The notes beneath the pieces are model-generated. The model did no database searches. It worked only from the letters and a program-made list of their open reading frames with translations, and was not told the DNA's origin. DNA of 64,000 nucleotides, from assembly GCA_958295775.1 (NCBI GenBank), contig CATQHC010000002.1, positions 653,663 to 717,662 on the forward strand, read 5' to 3'. The DNA is from Chloroflexota bacterium (GTDB taxonomy: Bacteria; Chloroflexota; UBA11872; VXOZ01). Both the position numbers and the translations under genes were made by a program. Each line of letters starts with the position of its first letter. Positions within the stretch are counted from its first letter, which is position 1. Shown here in pieces: positions 37,788-61,219 of the stretch.

Positions 37788-38900
37788 ATGAGAGGATACG
37801 ACGTTGTCATCATTGGGGCCGGCATCATCGGTCTCATGGCTGCGCGCGCCCTCCGCGCGGCCGGCCGCACTGTGGCCCTGTTGGAACGAAGCGAAGTAGG
37901 CAAAGAAGCCTCGTGGGCGTCCGCAGGCGTGCTCATGAGCAGACCCTATGCCTACGAGAGCATTTCCGATTTTGCGCTCCGTGTGGAAGGCAGCGAAATG
38001 CTCTTGGCCTTGGCGCCAGCGCTGGCCGCTGAGACCGGCATTGACATTGAAGCCGTGCGTCACCCTGCTCTGCACCTTGCGTTCACTGCGGATGGTGAAG
38101 CGAACATGCGCGCGTTGCAGCCCCAGTTGGAAGGGGCAGAGCTTGGCTGTGAGTTTATCAGCCCCGCGGACGTGCAGGAGCGGCAACCGGAGATCACGGC
38201 GCCGGTGACTCTCGGCATGGTGACTTCATGCGCGAACATTGAGAACCGGCGACTCCTACGCGCTCTGGAGATAGGCGCGCGCAACGCGGGCGTGGAGATC
38301 TTCACAGGGTGCGATGTCCAGACCCTGCAGGTTACCGGCGGCAGGGTGACCGGCGTGCATACCGCGACTCAGGAATTCAATGCAGATGCAGTCGTCAACG
38401 CAACCGGCAGTTGGGGCGGCACGCTGCGGGGAGCTCCGGAGCGCATGCCCGTGCTGCCGGAGCGCGGCCAGATGCTCGCGCTATGGACGGAGTCAGTCGC
38501 GCTCACGCACCTCATCAACCTGCCGCAGTACATCATAATCCCGCGCAAGAGCGGTCGCGTGCTCCTGGGAGCCACGAGCGAACGGGCGGGCTATGATCGG
38601 CGTAATACTGCCGGCGGCGTTCAGGGCATGCTCCATGCCGCAATTCAGGCGATACCGAAACTCGCCGATGCCGCCATTGAAGAGCTATGGACGGGATTCC
38701 GCCCCGCGAACCCGGACGGCTTTCCGCTCGTGGGACGTTCTGCCATAGAGGGCTATTACTACGCCGTGGGCCACTACAAGCTGGGCATCCAGCAAGCGCC
38801 TATCACCGCCGAGGTTATCAGCGATCTCATTACAAGTGGCGGGACTGCTCGCTCGGTAGCGCACTGGGATCCCACACGCTTTGGGACCGCCGAAACATAG
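37788..38900 (+). CDS. FAD-dependent oxidoreductase (glycine oxidase ThiO-like / DAO family)
   Basis: GAGIIG dinucleotide-binding motif, DAO-family length and C-terminal GHYKLGI motif. Confidence 0.75.
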   Translation: MRGYDVVIIGAGIIGLMAARALRAAGRTVALLERSEVGKEASWASAGVLMSRPYAYESISDFALRVEGSEMLLALAPALAAETGIDIEAVRHPALHLAFTADGEANMRALQPQLEGAELGCEFISPADVQERQPEITAPVTLGMVTSCANIENRRLLRALEIGARNAGVEIFTGCDVQTLQVTGGRVTGVHTATQEFNADAVVNATGSWGGTLRGAPERMPVLPERGQMLALWTESVALTHLINLPQYIIIPRKSGRVLLGATSERAGYDRRNTAGGVQGMLHAAIQAIPKLADAAIEELWTGFRPANPDGFPLVGRSAIEGYYYAVGHYKLGIQQAPITAEVISDLITSGGTARSVAHWDPTRFGTAET

Positions 38901-45006: not shown

Positions 45007-46497
45007 CTAGTTGAGTTGTGCGCTGACAACGGACAGCCCGAGCGACGGCACAGTCAGCAGCAACTCTCCGTCAGCATTCACGGTCGCGCTTCCTGACGCC
45101 GGTCTAATCACATCGGGCCTTTCCCACGAGTTGTGCGACTTGGGGTCGTGGCCGGTGAGAACGGTGACGTTGACTCTGGGATCTACTCGAAGGCTGTCAA
45201 GAGATATCCGGACATCAAGATCCTGTTGGAGGCTTCTGTTGACAATGAATACGGAAATCTTGTGTGTTGCCGGGTCATGGCTCGCCGAGACATCCAGCAT
45301 CGGCGCCTCACCTCTAGAACCGGCTTCGTAGGTCGGCCCCTCAACAATGGGGGAAAGCGAAAAACCCCGCGCGTGTTCGGAATAGAACTGCAACGGATAG
45401 AAGATACTTTGGATTAGCATGCCGTCGGGCTTTGTCAAAATAGGGGCTATGACGTTGACTATCTGCGCAAGGCAGGCAATCTTTACGGTGTCGGCATGGC
45501 GCACGAAGCTATTCAGGAACTGGGCACAGACCAGCGCATCCTCAAGGTTGTAGACCTCTTCGAGCAAGTGGGGTGCGCGGCTCCAGGCTCCGTCTCCCTG
45601 ACGGTCCTTGTACCAGACATTCCACTCGTCGAACGCGACGTAGACTCGCTTGTCGCTCTTCTTGACGCCGCGCACGTAGGCGAGCAGACCGGCGTAGTCT
45701 TTCAGAATCCGGTCGATCTCCACGCCCTCGGCCAGGAACCACGCGCTATCATCGTCGTAGTTACGGCTGTAGCGATGTGCAGAGACATACTCCACGTCGT
45801 CCCAGCAGGACTCCAGTACGACGCGATCCCATTCCAGGTACGTGTCCATGTAACGCCCTGAGGTGCCGCACGCCACGAGCTCGATCGTAGGATCCAGCCC
45901 CTTCATGAGGCGGGCGGCTTGCTGTGCCTTGACCGCGTACTCACCAGCCGAGCAATGGCCAGCCTGCCAGGGACCGTCCATCTCGTTACCAAGACACCAG
46001 AGCTTTACGCCATGAGGGTCGGCGCTGCCATTCTCACGTCGCGCATTCGCATAATGCGTGCCGCCCGGCAGGTTGCAATACTCGACCAATTCTGCCGCAT
46101 CCCGGGATCCCAACGTGCCGAGATTTACCGCCATCATGGGCTCTATATCCATCCAGCGGCACCAGCGCACAAATTCATCAACGCCAAACGTGTTTGGCTC
46201 GATGCTCCGCCACGCGAAGTCCGGCCGCACGGGACGCTGGTCTTGTGGGCCCACCCCGTCGCGCCAATCGTAATTGCTGACGAAATTCCCGCCCGGATAG
46301 CGAACATACGGCATGGCTAGTTTCCGCAGCGCAGCCGCCACGTCGGTCCGAAACCCATCTGAGTTGCTCAGCGGATTGCCGGGATCGAAGACGCCCTCGT
46401 ACACCGCCCTACCCAGGTGCTCCAAGAAACCGCTGAATATACGCCGATCTATCTCTCCCACGTGGTGATCGAGATCCAAGCGAATTGATGCTACCAT
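45007..46497 (-). CDS. Alpha-L-arabinofuranosidase (GH51)
   Basis: GH51 N-terminal FLEHLGRAVYEGVFDP and catalytic GNE/E motifs; ~500 aa. Confidence 0.85.
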   Translation of the reverse strand: MVASIRLDLDHHVGEIDRRIFSGFLEHLGRAVYEGVFDPGNPLSNSDGFRTDVAAALRKLAMPYVRYPGGNFVSNYDWRDGVGPQDQRPVRPDFAWRSIEPNTFGVDEFVRWCRWMDIEPMMAVNLGTLGSRDAAELVEYCNLPGGTHYANARRENGSADPHGVKLWCLGNEMDGPWQAGHCSAGEYAVKAQQAARLMKGLDPTIELVACGTSGRYMDTYLEWDRVVLESCWDDVEYVSAHRYSRNYDDDSAWFLAEGVEIDRILKDYAGLLAYVRGVKKSDKRVYVAFDEWNVWYKDRQGDGAWSRAPHLLEEVYNLEDALVCAQFLNSFVRHADTVKIACLAQIVNVIAPILTKPDGMLIQSIFYPLQFYSEHARGFSLSPIVEGPTYEAGSRGEAPMLDVSASHDPATHKISVFIVNRSLQQDLDVRISLDSLRVDPRVNVTVLTGHDPKSHNSWERPDVIRPASGSATVNADGELLLTVPSLGLSVVSAQLN

Positions 46498-46607
46498 CCA
46501 AAACTCCGTAGGAATCGTGCCATCCGAAGGCGCAATCGGTCAGTTGAGCGATCACTCAAGTGTGTAGCATTGTTCAATTGATCAGGGTCAAACTCAATTG
46601 AAATGAC

Positions 46608-47411
46608 CTAGAAACTAGCAGTATTTGGGAGATCCACTCGAACCTTCTCGATAAGCGAAAGCAATTCCGAATAGGTGTTGGGCCCGCCAATGTAGTCCCA
46701 TAGCTCGCTGCCAATTAAGACCTGCTTCTCCATGTCCATTATTTGTTTTGTAAATGAGTGCCCATAGCGATCCCGCGTCACGTAAGGGTTATAGGTCAGG
46801 CCCAGATACGCCCTGGATCTATCGATTCCTCGTCTGTTCATTATGGTCAAGTAATACAGCAGCTTTCTCTTAGACTCTGCAGCAACATCCAGATTAGGGA
46901 GAGGACTCTTCAACTCAACAAGCAAGGGCCCTTGTTCAAAGTCATCTATGTATAGGTCGGCAGTTACCGATCTATTTGACTGTCCACCACCACGCGAATA
47001 AAGGATGTCTCCCATCTCGCCCTCATGGTCAGGTCTTCTCGGAGACTCCCGTTGAGATTGAGGCGTCCGGAGCTCGGTCACAATCTGCTCGATCATATTT
47101 ATAGCTGCATCGTTTACAGTGCCTTCAACAACGTGCTCCGTGTGAACACTCTTGAATCGACCAAACGCAACGGCTTTGGCCAGAGCTGGGTAAAGCCTCG
47201 TGCCCATCGATGTCACAACACTCCGCTCAACCCTGGCCGCCAAGATTGCTTCTTCAGGAAAGAAAATCTGGTGGAACGGATATCCGAGTCTTATGTCTTC
47301 GATCGTCCACTTGCTCAGTTTGGGAATCTGACTTGCAGCAAACTCCCTTAGGACACCAAAGACAGCGTCTCTTGTCGTGGAATTCAACCCTACTATCCTT
47401 TTGCCGCCCAA
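46608..47411 (-). CDS. Putative type II restriction endonuclease (PD-(D/E)xK-like), low GC
   Basis: 267 aa, D...(E)LK core (DLYIDDFEQGPLLVELKS); immediately downstream of and overlapping a DNA methyltransferase gene; GC ~50% versus ~62% flanks. Confidence 0.6.
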   Translation of the reverse strand: MGGKRIVGLNSTTRDAVFGVLREFAASQIPKLSKWTIEDIRLGYPFHQIFFPEEAILAARVERSVVTSMGTRLYPALAKAVAFGRFKSVHTEHVVEGTVNDAAINMIEQIVTELRTPQSQRESPRRPDHEGEMGDILYSRGGGQSNRSVTADLYIDDFEQGPLLVELKSPLPNLDVAAESKRKLLYYLTIMNRRGIDRSRAYLGLTYNPYVTRDRYGHSFTKQIMDMEKQVLIGSELWDYIGGPNTYSELLSLIEKVRVDLPNTASF

Positions 47412-48619
47412 ATCAGAACGCTCTCGAAGAAATCTCCAGCCCTTCTTCCCGTCCTTCTGTTTACGTGTCTCTCAAGCCTAGTCTCAAGAGACACTCCAAT
47501 TTGCTCCTGGACTGTCTCGTAGAGACCATACTTGTCGTTGACGATAACCACCATTCGACCGTCTTTGGAGAGGCTCCTCTTGACATTCTCAAACGACTCG
47601 ATCATCTTTTTGACGTACTCAGCTTGCGCTCTCTGCGAGCTTCCATTCGTGGCTGGACCAATCTCCTCCTCAGCCTTCCACTCTAGACCCAGCAACTCGT
47701 ATGCATACCTATGTTGCTCATGATAGTCAATAAGCCCCACATATGGTGGCGAGGTGACTACAAGGTCGTACTTTGGGAACTGGGCTCTTCTCGTGTCGTC
47801 AGTAGCTATGAGTGTGGCCACATTTTTGCGAACATCAGCAAACTCACGAATTCGTTTGAGTGTATCGTTGCTATATCGTTTCAAAAACTGTGCAGAGTTT
47901 TTTGTTGGTCTGCAGGTTCGGCTATGTTTATAGCAGTAATAGGGTTCAGTTTGAGGCTGCTTTGGAAAGTCGAGGTCAAAATGCGTTGTAAGGCGCGCCG
48001 ACCTGGCTGCCCTTGATAAGATCACCCTGAGGACGTCACTGTAAGTGTAATCTTCAATGTGCTTCCGGTATGCTAGCAACGAACCTAGTGCTTGAGGCGC
48101 AAACCACGACTGTAGGTAGTCACTCACGTTATACTCGGCTTTTTGTTCAAGCAACGAGAGTTGGTTAGTGCCAAGCGCCCTCTTCAACGCATCGTTAATC
48201 TCATACTCAAGTAGACTTAGGTCGTACTTGCCTGTCTTTACTCGGGTCATTAGGGTGTTGAATTCGGAAATATCACACCCTATCGCATTTATCCCTAGCG
48301 ACGCCGCTTCAACCAAGGTTGTGCCCGAGCCGCAAAATGGATCACAGACCGTTGTAGGCTCAAATTTGCGTAGGAATATCTCGACCAACTGGGGAACGAA
48401 CTTTCCAAGATAGGGATGAAGGCGATGGACATGTTTCGTCCGAATTCGCTCCGGCAAGTCGCTTTCGCGCCAGTTGAGATTGAGGACTTCTAGCTTCGTA
48501 CTTGACCTAACTGAATCGAACGCGGTGAACGGGTCCGTTTGATAATCGGGATCGTACCCATATGACCTGTCGGCGCCAAGAGGTGATGTAGATGAGAGAT
48601 TGGTCTTGGTCTGCTTCAT
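47393..48619 (-). CDS. Site-specific DNA methyltransferase (N4-C or N6-A, amino-MTase)
   Basis: Motif I DPFCGSGTT and motif IV SPPY; low GC; start chosen at MKQTKT (ATGA overlap with the upstream stop); longer alternative starts at 48655. Confidence 0.8.
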   Translation of the reverse strand: MKQTKTNLSSTSPLGADRSYGYDPDYQTDPFTAFDSVRSSTKLEVLNLNWRESDLPERIRTKHVHRLHPYLGKFVPQLVEIFLRKFEPTTVCDPFCGSGTTLVEAASLGINAIGCDISEFNTLMTRVKTGKYDLSLLEYEINDALKRALGTNQLSLLEQKAEYNVSDYLQSWFAPQALGSLLAYRKHIEDYTYSDVLRVILSRAARSARLTTHFDLDFPKQPQTEPYYCYKHSRTCRPTKNSAQFLKRYSNDTLKRIREFADVRKNVATLIATDDTRRAQFPKYDLVVTSPPYVGLIDYHEQHRYAYELLGLEWKAEEEIGPATNGSSQRAQAEYVKKMIESFENVKRSLSKDGRMVVIVNDKYGLYETVQEQIGVSLETRLERHVNRRTGRRAGDFFESVLIWAAKG

Positions 48620-49797
48620 AGAGAAACAGTAACCCATCCGAGTTCTTCCCGCCAATTCGGCGCAACGTCGCCGAACCTATCCATGCGCAATCCGCTTATG
48701 TCAACGCTCGTATCGCCGTGGAGCGCCAATTCGCTCACGACCCTGCCTGTGGCGCCTGCGATGGCGAAGCCATGGGCCGACGCGGAGACAAACACAAAGT
48801 TGCTCGGATTGTCGAGGATGTCAATGATTGGCAGGGAGTCCGGTGCCTGTTCTATCACGCCGGCCCAGCTCCGGATTACCGGCACGTCCGCCACCCCTGG
48901 GAACAAGTCTGCCAGCCGCCTGGCTATGTTTCGAATGAGCGGCGTGTTGGGCTTGCTGGGATCGGAGGTCAGATCCACATCGATCCATTCGTGGGGCCCC
49001 CCTCCATAGAGCAGGTTGCCCTTCTTAGCCTGGCGCCCGTAGAGTCCGTTTCCCACCAGGGCGAATTGAAAGAGTGGCTCTAAGGGAGCGGTGGCAATAA
49101 TCTCTGCCCGTGCCGTTGCGAGCGGAACGCGCACGCCCACCATCTCTAAAAACAACGCAGTTTGCGGTCCGGCAGCACATACAACCGTGTCGGTCTCAAT
49201 GGCGCCGGCGGTCGTCTCAACCGCTGAGACCCTCTCGCCGGCGAGCTTGAAACCCGTGGCGGCGGTATGCTGGTAGAGCTTGCCGCCCCGGTCTTGAAAG
49301 GCCCAGGCAAATGCCTGGACTGATCGTTGAGGGTTCGCGTGCGCGCCCTTCGGGAAAAAGATCCCGCCGAGCGATCTATCGGTGACGTACGGCGCCATGT
49401 CCTTGATTTCGGATGGGTCCAACACGTCCACTTGTACGCCGAAACGTTCCCCTACCTCTCGTTCGGTCAGGTAGCGGTCCATTTCCGGTTCGGATACGGC
49501 TATTTGGAGCCTGCCTGCTTGCACGAACTCAGTGGGATAGCCCAGCTCATCGTCCAGCATCTCCCATAGTTTCACAGACTCCACCGCCAACGGCACCAAA
49601 GCCGGCTCGTCAGTTCGCTCGCTGATCATCCCGCCGTTGCGCCCGGAAGCCTCGGCTCCGACGACACTCTTCTCGACGACGACGACATCCTTGCCCGCCT
49701 TGGCCAGATAATAGGCTGTGCTGAGGCCCGAAATGCCACCGCCAATGACGACTACGTCTGCTCTGTTGCTAGGCATGCTGCCACTCCGCTGATCCAC
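48616..49797 (-). CDS. FAD-dependent oxidoreductase, sarcosine-oxidase-beta / HcnC / OoxB-like
   Basis: VVIGGGISG dinucleotide motif, DAO-family architecture, ~390 aa. Confidence 0.8.
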   Translation of the reverse strand: MDQRSGSMPSNRADVVVIGGGISGLSTAYYLAKAGKDVVVVEKSVVGAEASGRNGGMISERTDEPALVPLAVESVKLWEMLDDELGYPTEFVQAGRLQIAVSEPEMDRYLTEREVGERFGVQVDVLDPSEIKDMAPYVTDRSLGGIFFPKGAHANPQRSVQAFAWAFQDRGGKLYQHTAATGFKLAGERVSAVETTAGAIETDTVVCAAGPQTALFLEMVGVRVPLATARAEIIATAPLEPLFQFALVGNGLYGRQAKKGNLLYGGGPHEWIDVDLTSDPSKPNTPLIRNIARRLADLFPGVADVPVIRSWAGVIEQAPDSLPIIDILDNPSNFVFVSASAHGFAIAGATGRVVSELALHGDTSVDISGLRMDRFGDVAPNWREELGWVTVSL

Positions 49798-49807
49798 TGA
49801 TCATTGC

Positions 49808-51340
49808 CTACCCCAACACTCTACTCACGGGAATGAACCACTTCACCCAATTCTCGCGCATTTGCTCCGTCTCATCGTGCGGCCACATGACACTCAGCGA
49901 CAAAGGTCGCACCGGCGGTCGAATTGACATTTGCGGAATTTCTGCTATATCGGTACCGGACTCTGCAGCAAGCAGCAGTGATACTTGCTCAAGGCAACGC
50001 CGGCCCTGGCAGTGGCCCATTCCCACCCGCGTCAGACGCCTGACCTGGTCCGGATTGACCGGTCCGTCCAGCAACTGTGTCTGAACGCTCCGGTTGCCCA
50101 TCTGCTCCGATTGCCAGTCCAAGTACCGCGGCGGCTCCAAGTCTATGAGCTCAGCCCGCGTGACCTTCTCGCACTCGCAGGCATTGACTTCCAACCCACC
50201 GGCGTTGACGAGACTTTGCAGCCACTGCATCCAAGTCGAGTGCGCCTCAGTTGGTGATGCGGTGACTTCCCTAGCCTGAATCTCAGATCTGCGAGCAAGG
50301 GACTGCTCCCTATCAATAGCGCCTAGTGACTTGGCGGCCGCAATGCCGGCGAGGCGACCTTGGTTTCGCGCTATCTCAGGGTTAAGGATCATATCGTCGT
50401 GTACACCGGCGGCGTCGCCAGCGACGAATACAGTGTCGTCGCTAGTTCGCATCCACTCATCGTGACTAGGCACGTATCCGCCCAGCTCAGACTTGAAAGT
50501 AGTATTGCAACCCAGGAGACTGAGGAGCTCTATGTTAGGTACGAGACCGATTGCGACGCAGACGGTGTCGGCGGCGACGGCCTTCTCAGAGCCGTCAATT
50601 GGTTCGTACTGGTCGTCGATCTCAACCAGCACGACGGACTCTATCTCAGCGTCGTTGCCGGCGGCTACCTTAACGGTGTGAGACGTGTATAGCTCTACAC
50701 CCTCTTCCAGTAACCCCGCCAAAAGGGCCTCGTCGCCGCGTGCGGAGGAGGACACGTCCACAATTGCCGCAACCTCGATTCCACAATTCAGCGCCATCCT
50801 GGCAGTGTTGAGACCCAGGTTGCCTGAACCCAAGACCACCATGCGCCGCGCGTTCAATGCCTGGTATTGACTCAGCAACGCGTGGGCGCCGTTGGCTCCC
50901 ATAGCCCCTACCAAGTTCGACCCGGCAAAAGACATGCTCAAGTCTCGGGAACCTGCTGCAACAATGAGCCGGTCGTACTTGATCACCCACGACCGTTTGT
51001 AGTCAGACAAGCCAAGTTGCGGGCCGTCCAGTGCCCGGCTGGTGTCCGTATTGCGAAAGGCGCCCCACACGCACGTGCCGAGTTGAACGTCGACGCCGGC
51101 TGCCTTGGCTGCCGACAGCGCGCCATTAGTCGCAGCCACTCTCTCCAGCATCACGTCCCGGTTGCTGACCGTGTCTGAAAACCGTTTGCCGAAGAACTGA
51201 GGAACGTCCAAGCCCAGCATGGACTCACTGATGGGGTTCTCATCAATGAGCGTTACCTGTACGCCGGCCTGGGCCGCTGCGATGGCAGCAGCCGTCCCGG
51301 CCGCGCCCGCTCCCACCACTACCAGTTGTTTGGACACCAT
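49808..51340 (-). CDS. NAD(P)/FAD-dependent oxidoreductase with C-terminal BFD-like [2Fe-2S] domain (HcnB/OoxA/SoxA-like)
   Basis: Two Rossmann GxGxxG motifs (VVGAGAAG; VLGSGNLG) and C-terminal CxC...CxxRC cluster (CECEKV...GHCQGRRC). Confidence 0.8.
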   Translation of the reverse strand: MVSKQLVVVGAGAAGTAAAIAAAQAGVQVTLIDENPISESMLGLDVPQFFGKRFSDTVSNRDVMLERVAATNGALSAAKAAGVDVQLGTCVWGAFRNTDTSRALDGPQLGLSDYKRSWVIKYDRLIVAAGSRDLSMSFAGSNLVGAMGANGAHALLSQYQALNARRMVVLGSGNLGLNTARMALNCGIEVAAIVDVSSSARGDEALLAGLLEEGVELYTSHTVKVAAGNDAEIESVVLVEIDDQYEPIDGSEKAVAADTVCVAIGLVPNIELLSLLGCNTTFKSELGGYVPSHDEWMRTSDDTVFVAGDAAGVHDDMILNPEIARNQGRLAGIAAAKSLGAIDREQSLARRSEIQAREVTASPTEAHSTWMQWLQSLVNAGGLEVNACECEKVTRAELIDLEPPRYLDWQSEQMGNRSVQTQLLDGPVNPDQVRRLTRVGMGHCQGRRCLEQVSLLLAAESGTDIAEIPQMSIRPPVRPLSLSVMWPHDETEQMRENWVKWFIPVSRVLG

Positions 51341-51418
51341 ATAAGACCCTCCTGTAGAACTGAAGGCCTATTCTACGCTAGATATTCTAGGACATACGTG
51401 AACGAAATTCTGGATGAG

Positions 51419-52480
51419 CTAGACGCCGGCGCGTGTGGAGGCTATCTCATCAGGCAGAGCGCCCGACAAGGCCTCGATGTAGTTGGGACCAAATCCACAG
51501 CACGTCCCTATGACCTGGGTTCCCATGTCAACCCATTTGGCGGCTACGTGCGTCAAGGCTTCGGCAGACTCTTCGTTGCCGATACTGCCATCCTGCCAAG
51601 TGTCAAGATAGTCTTCCCTGCCTGCGTCCGGATACGCCAGAATAGGGCCCGGCCACTGATCGATGACGACCTGAAGCGCCTTTGTGGTATCGCTTACTCT
51701 GCTATGAAACACACCGAGTACATCGGGCCCCACCTGGGCGATCTCGCTGACGGCCTGGGCCAATGTCTTTTCATTGTCAACCGGCCGCCAAGTGGAAGTC
51801 CACATCGGCATTCCCAAGCCAATACTGTAATTGCGATCATCGGCAAAATCCATCCTGACCGTCTGACCGTCAGGCGCCAGTGATGCCGTAAATGCCACCC
51901 ATACCGGCAGACCGGTGCTCTTGGCCGCCTCAGCGGCAATTGCCCTGGATTCGTTGTCGGCCCACAGGTTTTCAATCAGAAAAAAGTCCACCCCGGATTC
52001 AGCCAGAATGTCCGCCTGCTCTTTGGCGTGAAAACTCAACTCCTCCACCGAGAGACTGGCGCCGTAGCCATAGCCGGTGCCGCCCAGGAGTGTCCCCGTC
52101 TTGCGGTCGCGAATCGGAATGCGGCACGAGATTGAGCCGGCGATGTACACAGGCCTGTCGCCAGCAGCCCGTTCCCTGGCCTCCAGCGCTGAATCCACGG
52201 CGCGGATGTTGACCTCGCGCACCAATTCTCCGTAACCGGAAGCCTCTAGAGCGGGACGGAGCGTGTTGAATGTGTTCGTGGTGATTATGTCGGCCCCTGC
52301 CCGTATATACCGCTCGTGCATCTGCCGCACGGTTATCGGGTGGGTATAGCTCCCGGGGCCGCACCACGAGGCCGGGTCCATCGGCACACCCATGGCCTGG
52401 AGCTCTGTCCCAATAGCCCCGTCCAAAACAACCACGTCGCCCTGGTCCAACCGCCTCTTCAACTCATCATAGTTGGCCAT
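51419..52480 (-). CDS. Homocysteine S-methyltransferase-domain protein (MmuM/BHMT-like)
   Basis: N-terminal LDGAIGTEL motif and zinc-binding Cys...GTCCG motif typical of the Hcy-binding domain. Confidence 0.8.
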   Translation of the reverse strand: MANYDELKRRLDQGDVVVLDGAIGTELQAMGVPMDPASWCGPGSYTHPITVRQMHERYIRAGADIITTNTFNTLRPALEASGYGELVREVNIRAVDSALEARERAAGDRPVYIAGSISCRIPIRDRKTGTLLGGTGYGYGASLSVEELSFHAKEQADILAESGVDFFLIENLWADNESRAIAAEAAKSTGLPVWVAFTASLAPDGQTVRMDFADDRNYSIGLGMPMWTSTWRPVDNEKTLAQAVSEIAQVGPDVLGVFHSRVSDTTKALQVVIDQWPGPILAYPDAGREDYLDTWQDGSIGNEESAEALTHVAAKWVDMGTQVIGTCCGFGPNYIEALSGALPDEIASTRAGV

Positions 52481-52683
52481 GACCGGAACCTCCCTGATGG
52501 CTCAGCACATTGCCCAAAACTACTCAGAATTCAGCCGACCAAATCCTGCCTTTGCAGGCTGCTGAAAGCTAGCGGCATTCTAGTCTCTTTTAGGTATTCC
52601 GTCAAGCGGTCAAAACGCACAATTCGGTTTGTCTGTCAAACCATGTGAATTGCGCTAAGGTTTGCAGGGCCGTCTCACTCGAA

Positions 52684-53331
52684 TTACTGCTTTCGCGCAA
52701 GCACCAAAGGGTGGTTCTCGCTAGTTTCCAGGGCTGCATTTTCGTAGCCTGAACCCGTTGACTTGCTCTCAACCAGCACGAACCCCGCTTCGGTCAGAAT
52801 CTCTCTGTACTCCCCAAGGCTAAAGTTGCTCCAATACATCGTCACCCCAAAGAAATCATCCTCCGTGTAACCCTCTTCGCTGTAGTGACTCAAAGTGCAT
52901 AGCAGATACCCGCCTGGCTTGAGCCACCGGTAGACTCTACGAAACAGATCTGGGTGTTCTTCTCTGGGAATGTGAAATATGGCATAGAAGGCTATCACCG
53001 CGTCGAAGCTGGAAGGAGGCAATTGAGTCGACATGATGTCAGCACACTTGAAGTTGCCGGCAGGCACATTCTGCTGTGCCCGCCGGATCATCTCCGGGGA
53101 GACGTCCACGCCGGTGACGCGGTAGCGTGCGGCCAGGGACTTTGCAATGGGGACACCGGCGCCACAACCGATGTCGAGCACCGCGTCGCCGTCGTTCAGT
53201 CTGTCTGACAGCCCGCGAATTTCGTTTCCCGGCTCAGCCATGCGCGATTCGGCATAGGCGGCCGCGCAGGAGTCATACGCTTTTCGTACCAATACTTTGT
53301 AGCCTACTTTCGGATCAGTCGCAGGAATCAA
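52684..53331 (-). CDS. Class I SAM-dependent methyltransferase
   Basis: Motif I LDIGCGAG, motif post-I VTGVD; 215 aa. Confidence 0.85.
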   Translation of the reverse strand: MIPATDPKVGYKVLVRKAYDSCAAAYAESRMAEPGNEIRGLSDRLNDGDAVLDIGCGAGVPIAKSLAARYRVTGVDVSPEMIRRAQQNVPAGNFKCADIMSTQLPPSSFDAVIAFYAIFHIPREEHPDLFRRVYRWLKPGGYLLCTLSHYSEEGYTEDDFFGVTMYWSNFSLGEYREILTEAGFVLVESKSTGSGYENAALETSENHPLVLARKQ

Positions 53332-53492
53332 TACCCCGAGCCTTTCATTGCTAATAGTGAGTGCTCTTCGAGCGCGCTACCTGAGAGTCAAACAGAATCC
53401 AGGGAAGTGAAAGCAAAGAGAAATAAGAGATCTCCAGCCTCCGATGGCCCCAAAGTGCCACCATTGGCCGGGAGGTCAGGAAAAAAACAAGG

Positions 53493-53570
53493 GGGGGTGG
53501 CTGAGGGGACTCGAACCCCCAACCGCTGGAGCCACAGTCCAGAGCTCTAACCTGTTGAGCTACAGCCACC
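53493..53570 (-). tRNA. tRNA-His (anticodon GTG) with encoded G-1
   Basis: Reverse strand folds as G-1 + GTGGCTG acceptor, anticodon loop CTGTGGC, T-arm GGGGG-TTCGAGT-CCCCT; same layout as E. coli tRNA-His. Confidence 0.85.
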
Positions 53571-53780
53571 ATGCGGGGTGCATTCCTTGCTCAGTCTAGC
53601 AAGCCAATCGGTCTCTCGTCAATGAGTCGAGCAGCAGCGCATCCAGGGCAATGGTGGGACGCTATGTCATACGCACTCTTCAGGTCTTAGCTGGAGATTA
53701 GGCGCGAGGGTCACATTTAACCGGGCTCGTGCAAGCTTCAATTTCAGACCGGTCCAGTGGCCGCCCGCCAGGAACCTTAG

Positions 53781-56043: not shown

Positions 56044-57579
<1,536 letters not shown>

Positions 57580-58073: not shown

Positions 58074-58150
58074 GGGCCACTAGCTCAGTTGGTTAGAGCG
58101 CGCCCCTGATAAGGGCGAGGTCTGTGGTTCAAATCCACAGTGGCCCACCA
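58074..58150 (+). tRNA. tRNA-Ile (anticodon GAT)
   Basis: GGGCCAC acceptor, anticodon loop CTGATAA, T-arm, encoded CCA; in the spacer 3' of 16S. Confidence 0.9.
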
Positions 58151-58361: not shown

Positions 58362-58437
58362 GGGGATGTAGCTCAGTTGGGAGAGCACCTCCTTTGCAAG
58401 GAGGGGGTCAGGAGTTCGAGTCTCCTCATCTCCACCA
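58362..58437 (+). tRNA. tRNA-Ala (anticodon TGC)
   Basis: GGGGATG acceptor with the G3-U70 identity pair, anticodon loop TTTGCAA, encoded CCA. Confidence 0.9.
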
Positions 58438-60106: not shown

Positions 60107-61219
60107 ATGCTAAATCTCCCTCATGCCGATGTCGTTGGGAGCTTGATACGACCGCCGGAGCTGCTCGTCGCGCGCGAGGAATTTGCGGCCGGGCTAATCT
60201 CGCCCGCGGCATTCAAGCGCACCGAGGACGCCGCTGTCGATAGCGCCGTTGCTGCTCAGGAGGACTCCGGACTTGAAATCCTCACCGACGGCGAAATGCG
60301 CCGGCTCTCGTTTCAGAGTCAGATGCCCGAGGCAGTCGCAGGCTTTGGCGAGTTCGATATCGACGCGTTCCTCTGGGGCGATTGGCAGGGCGACGAACGG
60401 GTAGGAGACTCGCGCACGGAGCGTCCCGCGACTTTGGGTGTCGTCGGCCGCCTCCAGCGGAAGCGCCACCTGTCGGCGGAGGAGTTCACCTACCTGCGCG
60501 GCCGCACCACGCGCAGAGCAAAGGTGACATTGCCGAGCCCCAGCCTGTTCGCCAACTTCTGGTCGCCGGTGCAGTCCGCCGCAGCCTACCCCACCCTGGA
60601 TGCGTTTTTGGCTGATGTAGCGGCGATAGTCCGTGGGGAGATCGAAGAGCTAGTCAGGCTTGGGGCGACGTATATTCAACTCGACGCTCCGCACTATCCG
60701 CTCGTGCTAGATCCGGCATGGGCGGCCTTCTACGAGGCCCAGGGCTCGTCTGCGGAGGACTGGATCGCCCAAGGTGTCGAACTGGACAACGCCGTGATGG
60801 ACGGTTTCTCGGAAGTTATATTCGCGGTCCATCTCTGTCGAGGGAACCAGGGCGGTCGTTGGCTGGTCGCAGGCAGTTACGACCGGATTGTCGAGCCGGT
60901 TCTCCAGCGCATAAACGCGCAGCGGCTGATGCTGGAGTACGACGATCCACGCTCAGGCTCGTTCGAGCCTCTGCGCGGCGTGCCCGACGACAAGCTCGTG
61001 GGGCTGGGGCTGGTTACGACCAAGTCACCGCGCGCGGAGGACGTAGCCGAGCTTGAATCTCGGATCGCCGAGGCTGCCCGCCACTTCCCCCTGGAGCAAC
61101 TCGCCATCAGTCCGCAGTGCGGGTTCGCATCATCCATCGTCGGCAATCCGCTTTCGATCGAGCAGCAAAACGCAAAACTCCGCATCGTCGCCGAGACCGC
61201 CCGCCACGTTTGGGGATAA
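60107..61219 (+). CDS. Cobalamin-independent methionine synthase (MetE) catalytic-domain-like protein, short stand-alone form
   Basis: ~370 aa; MetE C-terminal-domain pattern incl. zinc ligands H-x-C (AVHLCRG), Glu and Cys (ISPQCGF). Confidence 0.7.
   Translation: MLNLPHADVVGSLIRPPELLVAREEFAAGLISPAAFKRTEDAAVDSAVAAQEDSGLEILTDGEMRRLSFQSQMPEAVAGFGEFDIDAFLWGDWQGDERVGDSRTERPATLGVVGRLQRKRHLSAEEFTYLRGRTTRRAKVTLPSPSLFANFWSPVQSAAAYPTLDAFLADVAAIVRGEIEELVRLGATYIQLDAPHYPLVLDPAWAAFYEAQGSSAEDWIAQGVELDNAVMDGFSEVIFAVHLCRGNQGGRWLVAGSYDRIVEPVLQRINAQRLMLEYDDPRSGSFEPLRGVPDDKLVGLGLVTTKSPRAEDVAELESRIAEAARHFPLEQLAISPQCGFASSIVGNPLSIEQQNAKLRIVAETARHVWG

Follow-up and report, generated by a model that had tools for sequence, protein, structure and literature searches.

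A conserved Chloroflexota gene trio pairing a homocysteine S-methyltransferase-family protein with a two-subunit flavoprotein: a candidate operon for N-demethylation of a quaternary N-methyl compound

Which pathway would place a homocysteine methyltransferase next to a two-subunit, flavin-dependent amine oxidase? This question is raised by a stretch of 64,000 nucleotides from a Chloroflexota bacterium (assembly GCA_958295775.1, contig CATQHC010000002.1, positions 653,663 to 717,662 of the forward strand), referred to here as the window, which carries three co-directional genes on its minus strand within positions 48616-52480. The first gene (51419-52480) encodes a homocysteine S-methyltransferase-family protein of 353 residues (HMT; Pfam PF02574), the second (49808-51340) a SoxA/OoxA-like flavoprotein of 510 residues with Pyr_redox_2 and SO_alpha_A3 domains (alpha), and the third (48616-49797) a flavoprotein of the DAO family (PF01266) resembling SoxB and the beta subunit of proline dehydrogenase, with 393 residues in its longest open reading frame (beta). 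An initial annotation, made from the sequence alone, had listed these three genes with an HMT-type, a SoxA/OoxA-like and a SoxB-like product, and both the open reading frames and the Pfam matches (PF02574, Pyr_redox_2, DAO) bear this out. We give somewhat better than even chances to the reading that the three genes form an operon by which a quaternary N-methyl compound, most probably an amino-acid betaine, is demethylated step by step. Far less confidence attaches to any specific substrate.

The genes are closely spaced: HMT and alpha lie 78 nucleotides apart, the gap from alpha to beta measures about 10 nucleotides, and a Shine-Dalgarno-like GGAG(G) precedes each start. Beta likely begins at an ATG at position 49776, which has a GGAG in front of it. 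A single operon HMT-alpha-beta is the most likely arrangement.

Conservation of the trio was followed in one genome per GTDB species, and the gene order was determined by tblastn in the 79 loci returned. In 77 of the 79 loci, each from a different GTDB species, HMT, alpha and beta follow one another directly in this order; of the two exceptions one ends at a contig end (L013) and the other is rearranged (L026). The co-occurrence of the methyltransferase gene with the oxidase genes, one of the two points on which the initial annotation wanted the proposed pathway to be judged, is strict. Orthologues are 67-88% (HMT), 58-80% (alpha) and 63-90% (beta) identical to the proteins of the window, and the catalytic and cofactor motifs of the three proteins are invariant in 72 to 76 orthologues. 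When all open reading frames of the 79 loci were clustered, the trio genes were the only families present throughout, and the next commonest neighbour was found in 13 loci; no transporter, regulator or C1-handling gene was conserved around the trio in this clustering. The association of the three genes is far beyond chance.

According to the record titles all loci but one derive from metagenome-assembled genomes of Chloroflexota, Dehalococcoidia, SAR202 or Caldilineaceae, many of which we take from their names to be bins of sponge or coral symbionts. As far as sampled, the module appears to be restricted to Chloroflexota, with one locus labelled otherwise. This locus (L049, CBDETY010000003.1), on a 6.8-Mb contig labelled Candidatus Latescibacterota, has a complete trio with an HMT 77% identical to that of the window, and could be explained by horizontal transfer or by a taxonomic mislabel. 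Two complete copies of the trio lie at distant positions in the genome OZ240223.1 (L039, L064), and a further locus (L014, 8001-10839) has a tandem duplicate of HMT in front of alpha and beta.

Strict conservation also bears on the possibility that the genes share no pathway. HMT would then be an enzyme of methionine salvage with S-methylmethionine or S-adenosylmethionine (SAM) as donor, like MmuM/YbgG, and alpha/beta an independent dehydrogenase for proline, sarcosine, glycine or a D-amino acid that is merely co-transcribed. The trio remains adjacent in 77 of 79 species while its flanks vary, which argues against two unrelated co-transcribed functions, and we consider this explanation unlikely, although several properties of the single proteins described below speak in its favour.

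The HMT protein matches PF02574 with an E value of 2e-46 (159.5 bits, cutoff 22) over profile positions 1-282 of 283, and carries the GTCCG motif at residues 325-329. No named model is matched at or above its curated cutoff. The BHMT model (betaine-homocysteine methyltransferase; NF005718, bmt) gives 95 bits with a cutoff of 338, the MmuM/YbgG-type model NF007020 gives 116.9 with a cutoff of 215, and the YitJ-type model 125 with a cutoff of 453; the cutoff of the MetH model is likewise missed. Identity to Paracoccus bmt is 29.5%. That the highest scores among the named models come from the YitJ type (125 bits) and the MmuM type (117 bits) fits a salvage enzyme acting apart from alpha/beta.

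The most conspicuous difference from known members of the superfamily lies in the zinc site. In the alignment with E. coli MmuM (5dml) the segment LGVFHS of HMT stands opposite LGINC, which puts His259 in the place of the first zinc-ligand cysteine. The cysteine pair C327/C328 is kept, but the three-cysteine site of the superfamily is not present, and the zinc is probably bound by His259, Cys327 and Cys328, as judged from the alignment. All 76 orthologues compared have D20, E170, H259, C327 and C328. E170 aligns with Glu159 of BHMT and D20 is the aspartate of the DGG/DGA fingerprint; from structures of BHMT and MetH we assume that both residues bind homocysteine. Hence HMT looks catalytically competent for homocysteine.

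A search among 1.84 billion representatives placed the whole Chloroflexota HMT clade in a single cluster at 50% identity. Its nearest relatives outside the cluster, with identities of 32-51% and a length of mostly about 300-330 residues, lack two insertions that are specific to the trio HMT, and all of them have a histidine in an MHS motif at the corresponding position; this histidine is invariant in 17 distant representatives of the subfamily (32-50% identity). That the trio HMT forms a distinct clade with insertions of its own speaks against a salvage enzyme that happens to be co-transcribed. The His-type subfamily as a whole numbers more than 2,600 proteins at E values up to 1e-20, from Alphaproteobacteria, Dehalococcoidia, Rubrobacteraceae and soil samples, and keeps a GGCCG motif (proteins P0122-P0386, alignments A2 and A3). 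We found no characterised or solved member in this subfamily; the solved relatives inspected, MmuM and BHMT, keep the cysteine.

The genomic contexts of His-type HMTs are either housekeeping (proS-lolCD-dnaE) or single cases, for example one beside a GMC oxidoreductase, and the contigs of the closest sisters of the trio HMT end at the gene or show no alpha. An attempt to deduce the methyl donor from these contexts was given up for this reason. Stand-alone genes in housekeeping neighbourhoods are also what a salvage function independent of alpha/beta would predict.

The flavoproteins belong to a known superfamily. Watanabe et al. (PMC4575208) describe a heterooligomeric family which comprises opine dehydrogenase, D-hydroxyproline dehydrogenase, hydrogen cyanide (HCN) synthase and L-proline dehydrogenase, and which is marked by ADP-binding motifs, an R-x-W motif in beta as putative FMN site, a C-x-C...C-x4-C motif in alpha and a gamma [2Fe-2S] subunit. 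Alpha of the trio matches Pyr_redox_2 with an E value of 5e-33 and SO_alpha_A3 with 26.5 bits (cutoff 23.1), and has GxGxxG motifs at residues 10 (GAGAAG) and 171. The BFD-type [2Fe-2S] domain ascribed to it by the initial annotation is recovered in part: the Fer2_BFD match (21.3 bits) stays under the threshold of 26, but the cysteines of a C388-x-C390-x53-C444-x4-C449 pattern, four in number, are shared by all 76 orthologues compared. Beta matches the DAO profile with an E value of 2e-74, has its GxGxxG motif at residue 19 (GGGISG), and R309-x-W311 (R309-S-W311) is invariant in 73 of 73 sequences. It is presumed to be the catalytic subunit, an amine dehydrogenase or oxidase with flavin adenine dinucleotide as cofactor.

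With PDH1 (1Y56), LhpBEF and OdhABC the pair thus shares the two N-terminal ADP-binding motifs, R-x-W in beta and C-x-C...C-x4-C in alpha; it differs from them in having neither a gamma subunit nor an N-terminal domain like gamma. The two cysteine pairs are also spaced differently, by 53 residues in alpha of the trio compared to 15-20 in the published motif (PMC4575208) and 27 in OoxA. No gene for a gamma/HcnA-type subunit is present in the operon, and the gamma motif C-x4-C-x2-C-x11-12-C is absent from all six frames of 48500-52600. Alpha itself has neither a gamma-like domain nor a folate (GcvT/GCV_T) domain.

Among solved structures the profile of the alpha subfamily matches best the N-terminal half of the alpha subunit of sarcosine oxidase (2gag_A, E 1.6e-26), and the C-terminus of the profile matches the alpha subunit of Pyrococcus horikoshii PDH1 (1y56_A, E 1e-17). 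Beta has its best match among solved proteins in the beta subunit of the L-proline dehydrogenase of P. horikoshii (1y56_B, E 1e-42), followed by SoxB (E 3e-33). This archaeal relative is a further point for alpha/beta as an independent dehydrogenase. The likeness to sarcosine oxidase SoxBDAG, which for alpha concerns the N-terminal half of SoxA and for beta SoxB, does not extend to the family level: alpha reaches 122.8 of the 1164 bits of the SoxA cutoff (TIGR01372) and beta 163.6 of 529 for SoxB (TIGR01373), alpha has no GcvT folate domain, and genes for SoxD or SoxG are not found in the operon.

HCN synthase has the same domain architecture as the pair at the superfamily level (Pyr_redox_2 with a cysteine region plus DAO), and an HcnB/HcnC-like alpha/beta could oxidise glycine to cyanide. 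Judged by the gene content of the operon and by the neighbourhoods of the relatives, we regard this as very improbable. An HcnA/gamma-type [2Fe-2S] subunit and its motif are missing from every frame of the operon, cyanide formation does not involve a methyltransferase that makes methionine, and the nearest relatives of the pair are found in loci of betaine-type catabolism.

These relatives were detected by tblastn of PLSDB plasmids. Full-length relatives of alpha in Novosphingobium, Ancylobacter, Paracoccus and Rhizobium are 32-39% identical to alpha, and their partners 40-47% to beta (234-343 bits). They have the order alpha-beta without gamma, and a spacer of 52-53 residues between the cysteine pairs in the three that were checked (Novosphingobium, Ancylobacter, Paracoccus). 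The pair of the window belongs to this gamma-less subfamily by gene order, lack of gamma, the 52-53-residue spacer, and identities of at least 30% (alpha) and at least 40% (beta). OoxA and OoxB of the Ti plasmid are more remote with 24% (78 bits) and 26% (86 bits), as are the pair of a Leisingera locus of the beta-gamma-alpha type (26% for alpha and 25% for beta, 71-89 bits) and a SoxB-like protein, for which only beta can be compared (27%, 118 bits). The HcnB/HcnC/Oox label of the initial annotation applies only at the level of the superfamily. A gamma/HcnA-type subunit is absent, and in this comparison, made with OoxA/OoxB of the Ti plasmid, the pair does not cluster with the opine oxidases. 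Given the low identity to OoxA/OoxB and the missing gamma, it was not assigned to the opine dehydrogenases/oxidases OdhABC, OoxAB and NoxAB.

Opine-type catabolism deserves attention all the same, since the octopine Ti plasmid holds the only documented operon we found that pairs an Oox-type heteromeric flavoprotein with an HMT-family gene. Its occ locus (L088) reads occQMPT-ooxB-gamma-ooxA-RidA-ocd and is followed by an unannotated HMT homologue, detected by tblastn with the HMT of an Agrobacterium larrymoorei plasmid as query (E 2e-41); msh is listed inside the occ operon in PMC4575208 (ooxB, gamma, ooxA, ocd, msh). By analogy, alpha/beta of the trio could cleave a secondary-amine, opine-like conjugate, possibly host-derived, and HMT with homocysteine could convert the released sulfonium compound or methylated amino acid (S-methylmethionine-like) to methionine. 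Sulfonopine releases S-methylmethionine, on which Msh acts, and opines are produced by sponges and by other invertebrates. The proteins themselves point in another direction. The trio proteins are only 24-27% identical to those of occ, whereas identities of alpha/beta to the subfamily linked to Rieske or electron-transfer flavoprotein (ETF) genes reach 32-47%. In Oox the [2Fe-2S] gamma subunit is a separate protein and the gene order is beta-gamma-alpha instead of alpha-beta, and the Ti-type HMT, 27% identical to that of the trio, has the usual cysteine at the position of His259. An opine pathway is therefore improbable. The occ operon shows, however, that the arrangement of the trio is not unprecedented: the trio had been called a combination outside the textbooks, and while full-text literature searches returned no description of HMT-alpha-beta, the pairing of HMT and Oox has this precedent.

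The contexts of the gamma-less relatives point to quaternary amines. The pairs of Novosphingobium, Ancylobacter and Paracoccus denitrificans adjoin a GbcA-like Rieske oxygenase (NF058607, 440-528 bits; in the scan of the Paracoccus proteins 529 bits on the GbcA model, below the cutoff of 670). In P. denitrificans PD1222 (plasmid 1) and Ancylobacter a reductase gene lies next to the Rieske gene and a GlxA-family regulator gene beside the cluster; in a scan of the Paracoccus proteins the reductase was GbcB-like and the regulator GbdR-like. Glycine-betaine binding proteins of ABC (ATP-binding cassette) transporters are encoded near the pair in both organisms, in Paracoccus together with soxG, folD and purU. 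The closest relatives (39% for alpha, 47% for beta) are encoded by a plasmid of Novosphingobium capsulatum (L081, 5325-12646), in the order Rieske oxygenase, cystathionine-gamma-synthase-family (CGS-family) pyridoxal-phosphate (PLP) enzyme, alpha, beta and CocE/NonD hydrolase. The pair of Rhizobium etli follows etfBA and lies near genes for ETF-quinone oxidoreductase (ETF-QO), gamma-aminobutyrate (GABA) transaminase and succinate-semialdehyde dehydrogenase (SSADH), a context consistent with an N-methyl-amine dehydrogenase that feeds ETF. Such ties of the relatives to quaternary-amine demethylases are also difficult to reconcile with a flavoenzyme unrelated to its neighbouring methyltransferase.

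The same cassette was found in about 50 to 65 of 80 metagenome loci with alpha homologues (L091-L170), from habitats that we judged by the sample codes to be peat or peat-moss, freshwater, soil and marine. Wherever sufficient upstream DNA is available the order is Rieske, CGS-family enzyme, alpha, beta. A LysR gene stands before the Rieske gene of the cassette. A Rieske gene was counted in 49 of these loci, a CGS-family gene in 65 and HMT in 0, and in many loci a second DAO-type gene follows the cassette. The most extended example (L143, 5549-16586 of a 1.5-Mb contig) continues with a SoxB-like DAO, a SoxA-like protein of 949 residues with a GcvT folate domain and a transporter of the major facilitator superfamily. 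This would amount to three successive C-N oxidation systems, as expected for the removal of three methyl groups, and the cassette looks like a three-step demethylation route for some amino-acid betaine. A homoserine or methionine skeleton of the substrate may be hinted at by the CGS-family enzyme; this is speculation for the relatives and need not apply to the trio. The cassette has the alpha-beta order, the lack of gamma and the cysteine spacing in common with the trio, but begins with an O2-dependent Rieske oxygenase instead of HMT and has in addition the PLP enzyme and a second SoxAB-like system.

From the repeated coupling of the alpha/beta subfamily to an enzyme that removes a first methyl group, and from the third C-N system in the longest cassette, we infer that alpha/beta oxidises the tertiary or secondary amine that is left. 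In the first step of the N-demethylation route proposed for the trio, the zinc-activated thiolate of homocysteine on HMT would take one methyl group from a positively charged donor, yielding methionine and a tertiary amine as BHMT does with glycine betaine. In the second step alpha/beta would oxidise a C-N bond of this product, at the methyl carbon or at the alpha carbon. Beta would act as the DAO-type catalytic subunit, and alpha would bring in a second site for a nucleotide and would transfer electrons by means of an Fe-S centre. The output would be a less methylated amine and formaldehyde, with electrons passing via the Fe-S centre of alpha to an acceptor. In the Proteobacteria and metagenome cassettes the first step would be performed with O2 by the GbcA-like Rieske monooxygenase, and in Chloroflexota HMT would take its place, so that the first methyl group is saved as methionine and not lost as formaldehyde.

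Some bacteria use BHMT for the first demethylation of glycine betaine and others the GbcAB Rieske system, and this alternation is a direct precedent for the exchange of HMT and Rieske enzyme. The further course of glycine betaine catabolism, through dimethylglycine dehydrogenase/DgcAB and then SoxBDAG, follows the same logic of flavin-dependent N-demethylation after transfer of the first methyl group to homocysteine or its removal by the Rieske enzyme. The trio HMT departs from BHMT by its score far below the model cutoff and by the histidine in place of the first zinc cysteine. Methyl transfer followed by oxidative N-demethylation had been suggested from the gene content of the window, and the GbcA-like Rieske, GbdR-like and betaine-binding contexts of the relatives independently support this logic, while the chemistry itself stays at the level of a proposal. 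Glycine betaine would be the default candidate for the donor, with others equally open; the proline-betaine pathway described in PMC3950512 uses HpbA and not alpha/beta.

Several observations weigh against stepwise N-demethylation by the trio. No betaine transporter, regulator, or formaldehyde- or folate-handling gene is conserved beside the trio or was seen among the scanned open reading frames of the window. As none of the 80 metagenome loci has an HMT beside the alpha homologue, the proposed equivalence of HMT and Rieske enzyme is one of analogy. Since HMT falls below the BHMT cutoff and that of every other named model, the donor cannot be read from homology, and the sister His-type HMTs sit in the uninformative or housekeeping contexts mentioned above. 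Finally, alpha has no folate domain, so that formaldehyde may be released free, or the oxidation may take place at another carbon.

A more specific variant of the demethylation route is conceivable, which we put forward as tentative. The trio would be an undescribed Chloroflexota route for a betaine other than glycine betaine, the His-Cys-Cys class of HMTs would make methionine without B12 or folate, and the Rieske-CGS-alpha-beta cassette would be the aerobic version of the same pathway in free-living bacteria. The substrate might be homoserine betaine, which forms the headgroup of the lipid diacylglyceryl-trimethylhomoserine (DGTS), or another amino-acid betaine, or else a betaine made by a host.

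Upstream of the trio a promoter-like site, TTGACG-17 nucleotides-TAGAAT, lies at 52605-52577 on the minus strand, about 97 nucleotides 5' of the start codon of HMT. It is the sole match to the sigma-70 consensus in 46400-53600. Among 80 related upstream regions about 40 have a TTGAC-N17-19-TAnnnT motif 93 to 127 nucleotides 5' of the HMT start codon, for the most part between -118 and -127, and 43 have one anywhere within 230 nucleotides upstream. The leader of about 95 nucleotides is conserved in part (e.g. ...CTGAGCCGnAACGGAG...ATG). An Rfam scan of the HMT upstream region gave no match at the gathering threshold nor at E values up to 1, an alignment of 60 leaders yielded no consensus secondary structure, and folds of single sequences after the -10 box showed no consistent hairpin. 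A riboswitch or other leader RNA in front of HMT was rejected on these grounds, which leaves the promoter-like motif alone.

Just 5' of HMT and on the same strand a class I SAM-dependent methyltransferase (Methyltransf_25/11) is encoded at 52684-53331. Such a gene adjoins HMT in 13 of 79 loci, including the rearranged locus L026 with the order alpha, SAM methyltransferase, HMT. On the other side of the trio a type II restriction-modification pair follows on the minus strand, consisting of an N6/N4 DNA methylase (47393-48655), whose open reading frame overlaps the end of beta, and a TdeIII-family endonuclease (46608-47411). The G+C content falls to 0.51 at this pair (46608-48655). It is present at the same spot in only three related loci (L002, L032, L066), and the other syntenic relatives are without it, which marks it as an insertion outside the trio unit; it has the appearance of a mobile insertion that separates beta from an arabinofuranosidase gene.

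The initial annotation had also drawn attention to a MetE-like gene nearby. The gene is indeed present at 60107-61219, but it lies on the plus strand, and a 16S rRNA gene and two tRNA genes separate it from the trio, so that an operon link was rejected. Its product of 370 residues (Meth_synt_2, 65.7 bits) resembles the C-terminal domain of MetE only and stays under all curated methionine synthase cutoffs; it is similar to the "core MetE" type. The 16S rRNA gene is complete (56045-57579, plus strand) and is followed by tRNA genes at 58074-58147 and 58362-58434, after which protein-coding open reading frames, including one for a PIN-domain protein, are found instead of a 23S rRNA gene; the rRNA operon thus appears to be unlinked. 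A second DAO-family gene at 37788-38900 on the plus strand is ThiO-like (232 bits with the glycine oxidase model, cutoff 251). It lies about 10 kb away from the trio, beside a DUF3179 gene, and is probably unrelated to the trio.

The superfamily of each protein was known before, and the chemistry that we propose varies the scheme of betaine catabolism. New are the strictly conserved HMT-alpha-beta module, the HMT subfamily with histidine in place of cysteine, and the gamma-less alpha/beta subfamily, whose Proteobacterial cassette is uncharacterised. Methylated amines and betaines are major osmolytes as well as nitrogen and methyl currencies in the sea and in animal hosts, and their use by the abundant sponge-associated Chloroflexota is poorly known. 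With three small proteins and cheap candidate substrates the question is directly testable. If the proposal is true, a betaine, possibly one derived from the host, would serve these bacteria as a direct source of methionine, which would constitute a metabolic link to the host where a host exists. It would furthermore provide a function for the large group of homocysteine methyltransferases that have histidine at the position of a zinc cysteine, and for a widespread gamma-less subfamily of SoxAB/Oox-like flavoenzymes that accompanies quaternary-amine demethylases.

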